A DNA stretch of 64,000 nucleotides, taken from positions 23,999 to 87,998 of the forward strand of contig CAMWIH010000001.1 in the NCBI GenBank assembly GCA_947174305.1. The letters are read 5' to 3'. Below, in pieces: positions 39,351-53,711 of this stretch (the stretch's first letter is position 1; each line of letters starts with the position of its first letter). The position numbers and the translations under genes are program-made. The stretch is from an uncultured Porphyromonadaceae bacterium (lineage in GTDB: Bacteria; Bacteroidota; Bacteroidia; Bacteroidales; Muribaculaceae). The notes under the pieces were generated by a model that was not told the origin of the DNA, did not search any database, and saw only the letters and a list, made by a program, of their open reading frames with translations.

Positions 39351-39389
39351 AATAGGTATATTTATTTATGCCTAAAGAAAATAGTTAAA

Positions 39390-39522
39390 CACCCGGAGAC
39401 AAACGGCATCCGCATACCCGGAGAGAACCGGCATATGCTCACCCGGAGAGAACCGGCATATGCTCACCCGAAGACAAACGGCATCCGCACACCAGGAGAG
39501 AAAAGACACCCAAAGACAAACA
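39390..39522. repeat. 25-bp tandem REP-like array (A-B-B-A' plus two partial units)
   Basis: Units at 39390 CACCCGGAGACAAACGGCATCCGCA, 39415 TACCCGGAGAGAACCGGCATATGCT, 39440 CACCCGGAGAGAACCGGCATATGCT and 39465 CACCCGAAGACAAACGGCATCCGCA; partial units at 39490 and 39507. Confidence 0.92.
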
Positions 39523-52993: not shown

Positions 52994-53461
52994 TCAGTTA
53001 TTATTGGCTAATACATTCGCGGCCTGTTCGGCACGGAATTCATCTAATTTGTTTTTGAGGTTTTCGTCGGTTATGGCAAACATCTCGATCGCCAGGAGGG
53101 CGGCATTCTTCGAGCCGTCGATAGCCACCGTTGCCACGGGGATGCCGCTTGGCATCTGCACCATTGAGAGAAGGGAGTCAAGACCCTCTAAAGAGCGTGA
53201 TTTTACGGGAACGCCGATCACGGGAAGAGTGGTGAATGCGGCAACCACACCGGCAAGGTGAGCCGCGCCTCCGGCTGCTGCGATGATGGCGCCGAAGCCA
53301 CGGTCGCGGAGGCTTGTCACCCACACCTCAAGTTCGCGGGGTGTGCGGTGTGCGCTATAAATCTTCTGTTCATACTCTACGCCGAATTTGGCAAGTGTCT
53401 CCCCTGCGCCCTTCATCACTCCGAGGTCGCTGGCCGAGCCCATCACAATTCCTACTTTCAT
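52994..53461 (-). CDS. purE: N5-CAIR mutase / AIR carboxylase catalytic subunit
   Basis: MGSASD, SAHRTP, AGGAAHLAG, PVIGVP and QMPSGIPVATV. Confidence 0.96.
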   Translation of the reverse strand: MKVGIVMGSASDLGVMKGAGETLAKFGVEYEQKIYSAHRTPRELEVWVTSLRDRGFGAIIAAAGGAAHLAGVVAAFTTLPVIGVPVKSRSLEGLDSLLSMVQMPSGIPVATVAIDGSKNAALLAIEMFAITDENLKNKLDEFRAEQAANVLANNN

Positions 53462-53507
53462 TTTTCTACCTGAATATTATATTGCTCAATAAGCGTTATC
53501 CGTGAAT

Positions 53508-53551
53508 AAAAAATTTTGCGCGCGTCAGTCTTTTTCGCCTGACGCGCGCAA
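53508..53551 (-). terminator. Terminator/attenuator hairpin in the purE 5' leader
   Basis: 13-bp stem TTGCGCGCGTCAG / CTGACGCGCGCAA (53516-53551) followed by AATTTTTTATT on the minus strand, between the promoter and the purE ATG. Confidence 0.75.
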
Positions 53552-53560
53552 TCTATCCTT

Positions 53561-53650
53561 TTATGTTTCAGCACACTCCGCCATAATCTCCGGGTGTTTT
53601 CGTTTCCTGAAGAAAGTTAGTGCGGATATGTGACCTATATGCTGAATCAT
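53561..53650 (-). other. Candidate leader uORF / structured RNA of the purine operon
   Basis: ATG at 53650 to TAA encodes MIQHIGHISALTFFRKRKHPEIMAECAET (29 aa); the same RNA can pair UUCAGCAUAU/GUGUGCUGAA and UCCGC/GCGGA. Confidence 0.45.
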
Positions 53651-53668
53651 TTCAATCCATTTGAATTG

Positions 53669-53676
53669 CAAAATTA
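53669..53676 (-). promoter_or_regulatory. -7 promoter box for the purE operon
   Basis: TAATTTTG on the minus strand, with TTTG at 53697-53700. Confidence 0.7.
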
Positions 53677-53711
53677 CATATTTTTTTCACAATACGCAAA
53701 TTTTTCGCCAA

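Follow-up and report, generated by a model that had tools for sequence, protein, structure and literature searches.

A conserved uORF-bearing leader as a candidate translation-coupled attenuator of a nine-gene purine operon in Muribaculaceae and Rikenellaceae

The DNA analyzed here, a stretch of 64,000 nucleotides referred to as the window, comes from a Muribaculaceae MAG whose genus is probably Sangeribacter. On its minus strand the window carries a purine operon together with the whole of its leader; coordinates were read from the window sequence and are collected in Table 1. An earlier note on this DNA had listed nine purine genes downstream of the leader, in agreement with our Pfam assignments, which place the nine products in the synthesis of IMP, AMP and GMP. 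The first gene, purE, begins with an ATG at 53461. The promoter, the mini-ORF, the uORF with three His codons and the terminator that the note had described upstream of this gene are all present on the minus strand. It had also placed a 13-bp GC hairpin with a U tract about 10 nt past the uORF stop; the measured distance is 9 nt, and the tract is T6.

Table 1. Features of the purE leader and its surroundings, listed in the direction of transcription.
Feature	Position	Strand	Description
Upstream AAA-ATPase/PD-(D/E)XK gene, stop codon	53714-53712	-	from the sequence
Bacteroidetes-type promoter	53669..53700	-	-33 TTTG 53700-53697, 20-nt spacer, -7 box TAATTTTG 53676-53669; read directly
Met-Asp-stop mini-ORF	53652..53660	-	3 codons; closest relatives only, lost in L124 and all more distant leaders
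uORF	53561..53650	-	29 codons + UAA, three His codons; read from sequence
Start-end helix, 5' strand	53637..53650	-	includes uORF AUG; pairs with 53576-53563 in the MFE fold and the RNAalifold consensus of 8 leaders
Central hairpin	53588..53612	-	A-rich loop with CGAAA 53602-53598, Arg-Lys-Arg-Lys codons; two stem pairs with compensatory changes
Candidate RNA polymerase pause site	53569..53579	-	contains GUGUG; G at -10, U at -1, incoming G; pausing predicted
Start-end helix, 3' strand	53563..53576	-	last part of uORF; MFE fold, 8-leader consensus
Spacer, uORF stop to terminator stem	53552..53560	-	9 nt; read from sequence
Intrinsic terminator	53508..53551	-	13-bp GC stem 53551-53539/53528-53516, 10-nt loop, T6 53513-53508
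Controlled operon purE-purL-purM-purH-purD-purB-purA-guaB-guaA	39713..53461	-	Pfam assignments

The promoter of the leader was missed by a sigma-70 scan because it is of the Bacteroidetes type. A TAnnTTTG box at a comparable distance is a feature of almost every homologous purE leader. Judging from the position of the -7 box, transcription is predicted to start a few bases past it. The Met-Asp-stop mini-ORF is probably a chance occurrence without meaning. The upstream AAA-ATPase/PD-(D/E)XK gene has its stop codon 161 nt from the hairpin.

This type of purE is carried by 163 of the 220 genomes of the genus. Upstream regions were read for 108 copies, nearly all leader sequences being MAG-derived, and the 102 regions that contained both the promoter motif and a strong hairpin were analyzed. 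An ATG-initiated uORF, 27-62 codons long and with its end at the hairpin, was present in approximately 80 of these 102 homologous leaders; by the criteria used, it was absent from 22. The uORF-bearing leaders form 41 sequence clusters from the source genus and from Rikenellaceae/Alistipes, and the Alistipes-type genomes display the same promoter-uORF-terminator plan. Among 81 unique leaders (68 Muribaculaceae, 13 Rikenellaceae), the spacer between stop codon and terminator had a median length of 4 nt and measured 12 nt or less in 96%, and 50 distinct 5'-arm sequences were counted among the terminators found at the equivalent position. Relatives carry different genes upstream of the leader, and we therefore assign the hairpin to purE and not to the preceding gene. 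When the interior of the frame was shuffled, the probability of an open frame arising by chance was 0.02-0.40 per cluster; the product over the 41 clusters, 5e-38, overstates the significance because the clusters are related and were selected for having an ORF. Relatedness of the leaders likewise overstates every other statistic given here, z-scores and P values included. On comparative grounds, we judge the recurrence of the promoter-uORF-terminator layout to be beyond chance. Control of the purine operon by premature termination, as the earlier note had proposed, is well supported by this conservation.

The length of the uORF is fixed within groups, at 29, 37, 45, 56 or 62 codons, despite a nucleotide divergence of 25-40%. 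In the group to which the window belongs, pN/pS was 0.58 in frame versus about 1.0 off frame. Three groups gave values of 0.58-0.65 in frame and 0.8-1.1 out of frame, and no pN/pS signal of selection was observed in two uORF groups. The weak constraint on the peptide suggests that translation of the uORF matters more than its product. Taken from the alignments, the uORF is judged to be maintained open by selection, with a peptide sequence that is barely constrained. A stable small protein or an arrest peptide was considered as the purpose of the frame and rejected, given the weak or absent pN/pS signal and the occurrence of the short motif GUGYG in all frames.

Some features of these leaders are shared less widely. 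A CAGGUA(A/G)AAA-like motif is located 5' of the purE start codon in the window (53475-53462, minus strand) and in many relatives. In the 56-codon group the terminator lies only ~20 nt upstream of a GUG-initiated purE, and the CAGGUA(A/G)AAA-like motif is found before the terminator, inside the end of the uORF (L020-L022, L130-L156). The 45-codon group (L030, L031, L027, L024) contains an inverted repeat, TTTGGA-N3-4-TCCAAA, overlapping the -33 element, and the window has a different, imperfectly symmetric sequence at this position, GAAAAATTTGC. The repeat of the 45-codon group may be an operator for a DNA-binding regulator that acts in addition to the attenuator.

An extra 5'-terminal element was observed in some purE leaders (L038, L041, L023, L025, L026, L209 and others). 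It consists of a 5-6-bp stem, GGAUAU/AUAUCC or, with compensatory changes, GAGUA/UGCUC in others, that surrounds the uORF start codon and two conserved loops, UGAUAACCGAAR and CCGAAAC. The element occurs in 19 of the 220 genomes of the genus and in one Rikenellaceae genome, is single-copy and is always at purE; it is missing in the window and in roughly 90% of the genus. Its structure hints at extra RNA-level control in the genomes that carry it, and the element could be an additional sensor that gates initiation at the uORF.

The other purine genes of the source genome are arranged differently. purC, purF and purN are scattered over contigs C39, C70 and C136 (L202, L203, L206), and their short, plain leaders contain neither a uORF nor a terminator; the purC and purF promoters are located 40-55 nt upstream of the start codon. 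The purE leader controls just part of the purine pathway. A regulon-wide motif was considered and rejected based on the short leaders of purC, purF and purN and on the restriction of the single-copy 5' element to purE. In 20 other Muribaculaceae genomes, purE is of another type (about 50% identical) that mostly lies directly behind another gene, and no uORF of at least 27 codons ending at a terminator was found at this type, indicating that the leader travels with the operon type described here. Sequence identity of the operon's purE amounts to 58-75% with copies from Rikenellaceae/Alistipes and 55-65% with those from Firmicutes, but only to about 50% with purE from other genera of the Muribaculaceae. 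The operon of nine genes appears, together with its leader, to have been horizontally exchanged between families of the Bacteroidales.

Folding of the leader RNA of the window recovered the long stem named in the earlier note as part of the minimum-free-energy structure, and the whole leader was more stable than shuffled sequences (z = -4.85), as was the uORF alone (z = -3.5). Its outer part, referred to here as the start-end helix, joins the opening 14 nt of the uORF, AUG included, to the closing 14 nt. The fold also contains an inner UCCGC/GCGGA helix and the central hairpin. In L133, the most divergent of the eight aligned leaders, the outer helix is preserved through changes on both sides, and the CGAAA hairpin is conserved with varying stems. 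Across the leader family, complementarity between the start region and the 3' end exceeded that of shuffled sequences with a mean z of -1.0 (28% of leaders below -1.64), and uORF folding did so with a mean z of -1.3. No antiterminator was detectable when the uORF was searched for duplexes with the 5' arm of the terminator and compared to shuffled sequences, the mean z being +0.48 over 80 leaders and +1.0 in the window.

The 3' half of the central hairpin also contains a 13-nt segment (53587-53599) that matches positions 39387-39399, at the head of a REP array. The segment varies among close relatives. The match is probably coincidental, as about 190 leader 13-mers searched against both strands of 64 kb are expected to yield ~0.4 matches by chance.

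Searching the window against Rfam 15 returned no match at the gathering score and only unrelated noise at E<=10. The families left unmatched include the Purine riboswitch RF00167, ZTP, the ykkC-type PRPP/ppGpp classes and Fibro-purF. Among 40 related purE loci, the only hit at the gathering score was RF00167 in the Oscillospiraceae locus L052, demonstrating that the search works and that this position serves purine control elsewhere. The RF00167 riboswitch of Firmicutes purE shares its genomic position, and presumably its task of premature termination, with the leader described here, but the latter lacks the conserved three-way junction and has an ORF running through its structured part.

An unrecognised riboswitch, in which the folded leader binds a purine-related ligand and thereby favors the terminator or hides the uORF start codon, would fit several of these observations. 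The uORF RNA is more structured than shuffled RNA, it contains short conserved motifs (ACAU, CGAAA and GUGYG), the 5' stem of some relatives shows compensatory changes around conserved loops and the AUG, and at an Oscillospiraceae purE locus this position is taken by RF00167. We nonetheless consider a riboswitch unlikely. Neither the window nor the related loci gave an Rfam match with a search whose positive control was detected, the leaders differ more than two-fold in length and have no common junction or core, and the 5' element is confined to a minority of genomes. The uORFs, at 27-62 codons, have only motifs of 4-5 nt in common and thus no conserved aptamer core; no mutually exclusive antiterminator/terminator platform was found either, and the frame is kept open through the supposed aptamer. 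The earlier note had offered an aptamer and ribosome-coupled attenuation as two possible mechanisms. The aptamer is not supported by uORFs of such variable length that share only short motifs, whereas ribosome-coupled attenuation is favored by the 41 open-frame clusters, the abutting stop codon and the lack of an antiterminator.

Three motifs are shared among the uORFs: an ACAUAUC-like segment, which reads His/Asn/Tyr-Ile-Ser in frame, CGAAA, which encodes Arg-Lys and is present in 53 of 82 uORFs, and GUGYG, which is found in 80 of the 82 unique uORFs. There are 1-5 copies of GUGYG per uORF (mean 2), in all three frames and with irregular spacing. Its density is 14.3 per kb in the uORFs compared to 1.28 genome-wide, an 11-fold difference, and 3.0 in the genes of the operon; the reverse complement is not enriched in the uORFs. 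Considering that all frames are used and that the reverse complement is unenriched, GUGYG is a signal in the nucleic acid, specific to one strand, rather than a Cys codon. The conserved Cys-like position has no fixed geometry, as it lies anywhere from 4 to 22 codons from the stop, which also counted against an arrest peptide.

A repeated, strand-specific motif without a fixed frame, together with a CGAAA hairpin that is conserved while its stems vary, is what might be expected if a purine-responsive protein bound GUGYG or the A-loop hairpin and, in the manner of PyrR or TRAP, blocked the ribosome or stabilized the terminated state. This protein-mediated form of attenuation strikes us as improbable, to the same degree as the riboswitch. 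There is no candidate gene, the upstream neighbors of the leader differing between relatives, and the leader is single-copy and restricted to purE, with plain leaders at purC, purF and purN. In addition, the spacing of the repeats is irregular, and binding of a protein would leave the end of the ORF at the terminator unexplained.

Within GUGYG lies the Y-1 G+1 core of G-10 Y-1 G+1, the consensus for transcriptional pausing; this consensus derives from E. coli, and the host of the leader belongs to the Bacteroidota. A G occupies position -10 at 44% of GUGYG sites, compared to 26% in the background. The candidate pause site of the window is very similar to a stretch of the E. coli His leader; we confirmed that this stretch occurs in that leader and take it to be the his pause site. 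The pause consensus, established in E. coli, is also present at the hisL and leuL leader pauses that synchronize translation with transcription, and the hisL pause is shortened at saturating GTP (PMC9291695). In 58 of 70 leaders, a count given without a null expectation, the segment predicted to pair with the AUG is located at a GUGYG site or past it; this position would be compatible with polymerase being held before the strand that masks the AUG emerges. The purine content before the terminator is modestly raised, at 0.62 compared to 0.54 at other terminators, mainly through G. A strong purine-rich tract before the terminator was considered and, with so modest a difference, rejected.

The leader peptides have an unusual composition. 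Arg makes up 12.8% of the residues encoded by the uORFs and 4.7% of those in the proteins of the operon. Of the Arg codons in the uORFs, 27% are CGA, compared to 5% in the operon, and 58% are CGA, AGA, AGG or CGG, compared to 15% in the operon genes. A rare CGA codon in frame was found in 71 of 82 uORFs, and a basic cluster likewise in 71 of 82. Overall the peptides are strongly basic: their net charge averages +7 over 47 residues, and acidic residues occur less than half as often as usual.

This composition raises the possibility of a sensor of amino acids or translation capacity, in which ribosomes slowed at the cluster of rare Arg/Lys codons, or in short supply altogether, would not get to the terminator and purine synthesis would be cut. 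The enrichment of Arg and of CGA and the recurrent basic cluster are in keeping with such a sensor. There is, however, no run of a single codon, Arg and Lys being mixed and the His codons scattered; CGAAA is also a motif at the RNA level, in the hairpin loop, and operons of this kind are usually governed by their end product. We regard this explanation as slightly less likely than either a riboswitch or a binding protein. The link to histidine suggested in the earlier note is not supported: HHH is present in none of 82 uORFs and HH in 8 of 82, and some uORFs have Asn, Tyr or Asp at the conserved His position.

Last, the idea that there is no regulatory unit at all, the hairpin being the terminator of the upstream AAA-ATPase gene, the purE promoter lying downstream and the uORF having arisen by chance, can draw on the 161-nt distance and on the ability of A-tract/T-tract hairpins to terminate both ways, but is highly implausible given that the hairpin is separated from the upstream gene by a promoter motif, that no TAnnTTTG box is found beyond the hairpin, and that the promoter-uORF-hairpin unit accompanies purE in two bacterial families whatever the upstream gene.

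We propose that the leader attenuates transcription of the purine operon through coupling to translation, in the manner of pyrBI/pyrE and with purine NTPs as the input, a reading that we hold with even confidence for and against. Within it, dependence of the attenuator on the uORF is the firmer part and is probable. NTP-dependent pausing as the signal is put forward tentatively, and the same reserve applies to the suggestion that the leader senses purine nucleotides without an aptamer or a protein, by using pause sites with an incoming G and an A-run to time polymerase against the pioneer ribosome.

In the proposed mechanism the pioneer ribosome would load on the AUG of the uORF while this codon is still unpaired; the time for loading would be limited because the AUG later pairs with the 3' end of the uORF itself. 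A ribosome following close behind polymerase would be at the stop codon, 9 nt from the stem, during synthesis of the stem, where it would block the hairpin and allow polymerase to continue into purE. If polymerase were ahead, or if no ribosome had loaded, the start-end helix and the terminator would form and transcription would stop. The variable that is read would thus be the relative pace of ribosome and polymerase. Low GTP, and possibly low ATP, would lengthen the pauses at GUGY|G and the A-run, so that the ribosome catches up and the operon is switched on; abundant purine NTPs would break the coupling of ribosome and polymerase and turn the operon off.

The short distance between stop codon and terminator can be compared with measurements in E. 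coli, in which a ribosome close to a terminator suppresses it: a stop codon placed 5 bp instead of 28 bp before a terminator reduced termination from ~90% to <10%, and full termination required >27 nt between the two (PMC4824070). A ribosome covers up to about 12 nt beyond the stop codon (PMC4833913), which would place the 9-nt spacer of the window at the edge of its reach. The coupling model assigns no necessary role to three conserved features, namely the basic cluster, the rare CGA codon and the central hairpin; the basic composition of the peptides and their rare Arg codons are not explained by it.

The attenuators of pyrBI and pyrE are UTP-sensitive and translation-coupled. With pyrBI (pyrL) and rph-pyrE of E. 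coli and Salmonella the purE leader would share translation of a leader ORF that reaches the terminator, the lack of an antiterminator helix, prevention of the hairpin by a ribosome close behind polymerase, a place before a nucleotide-biosynthesis operon and candidate pause sites upstream of the terminator, pausing in the purE leader being predicted (for pyrBI and the effect of the stop-terminator distance, see PMC4824070). It differs in belonging to a purine operon of the Bacteroidota and has no sequence relationship to these systems. Instead of the U-runs used there, GUGY|G and an A-run are the candidate signals, and the start codon can be sequestered by the 3' end of the ORF itself.

Like the purE leader, the classical attenuators hisL, trpL and leuL and the Bacteroid-trp leader RF01692 combine a small ORF in the leader with an intrinsic terminator that precedes the first gene and with a sequence resembling the pause consensus. 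In contrast to hisL and trpL, the purE leader has no regulatory codon run and no 2:3 antiterminator to oppose a 3:4 terminator, and its stop codon abuts the terminator, whereas that of classical attenuators is far upstream. RF01692, which we sought for comparison of pause motifs, was not found in the source genome.

A precedent for the reading of purine nucleotides is provided by mgtM of the Salmonella mgtCBR operon, an ATP-responsive leader ORF that acts through transcription-translation coupling (PMC3641672). There, too, the peptide is unconserved and certain nucleotides (adenines) are conserved. mgtCBR uses alternative stem-loops and is on at high ATP, whereas no alternative helix was found in the purE leader and its expected logic is the opposite, low purine NTP turning the operon on.

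In a limited literature search, conducted mostly without subscription journals, we found no leader peptide or attenuator described for purine genes of Bacteroidetes or Muribaculaceae and no published account of how purine synthesis is regulated in Bacteroidota. Attenuation of the NTP type has been described for pyrimidine genes, and within the same limited search no description for purine genes was found.

The leader is a conserved control element for a nine-gene operon, found in ~80 related leaders and put at well over a hundred gut species in two families. Translation initiation in Bacteroidota does not rely on Shine-Dalgarno pairing. If the proposed mechanism is correct, transcription-translation coupling in these bacteria would have to be tight enough for regulation, and NTP-sensing attenuation would extend from enterobacterial pyrimidines to the purines of Bacteroidota. 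For annotation, the leader serves as a warning that structured Bacteroidales leaders may conceal translated uORFs instead of aptamers. The purE leader would be a purine counterpart of pyrBI, in which low GTP/ATP switches on the entire IMP/AMP/GMP pathway, and could represent the main purine control in many gut Bacteroidales, among them Sangeribacter-like Muribaculaceae and Alistipes-like Rikenellaceae.
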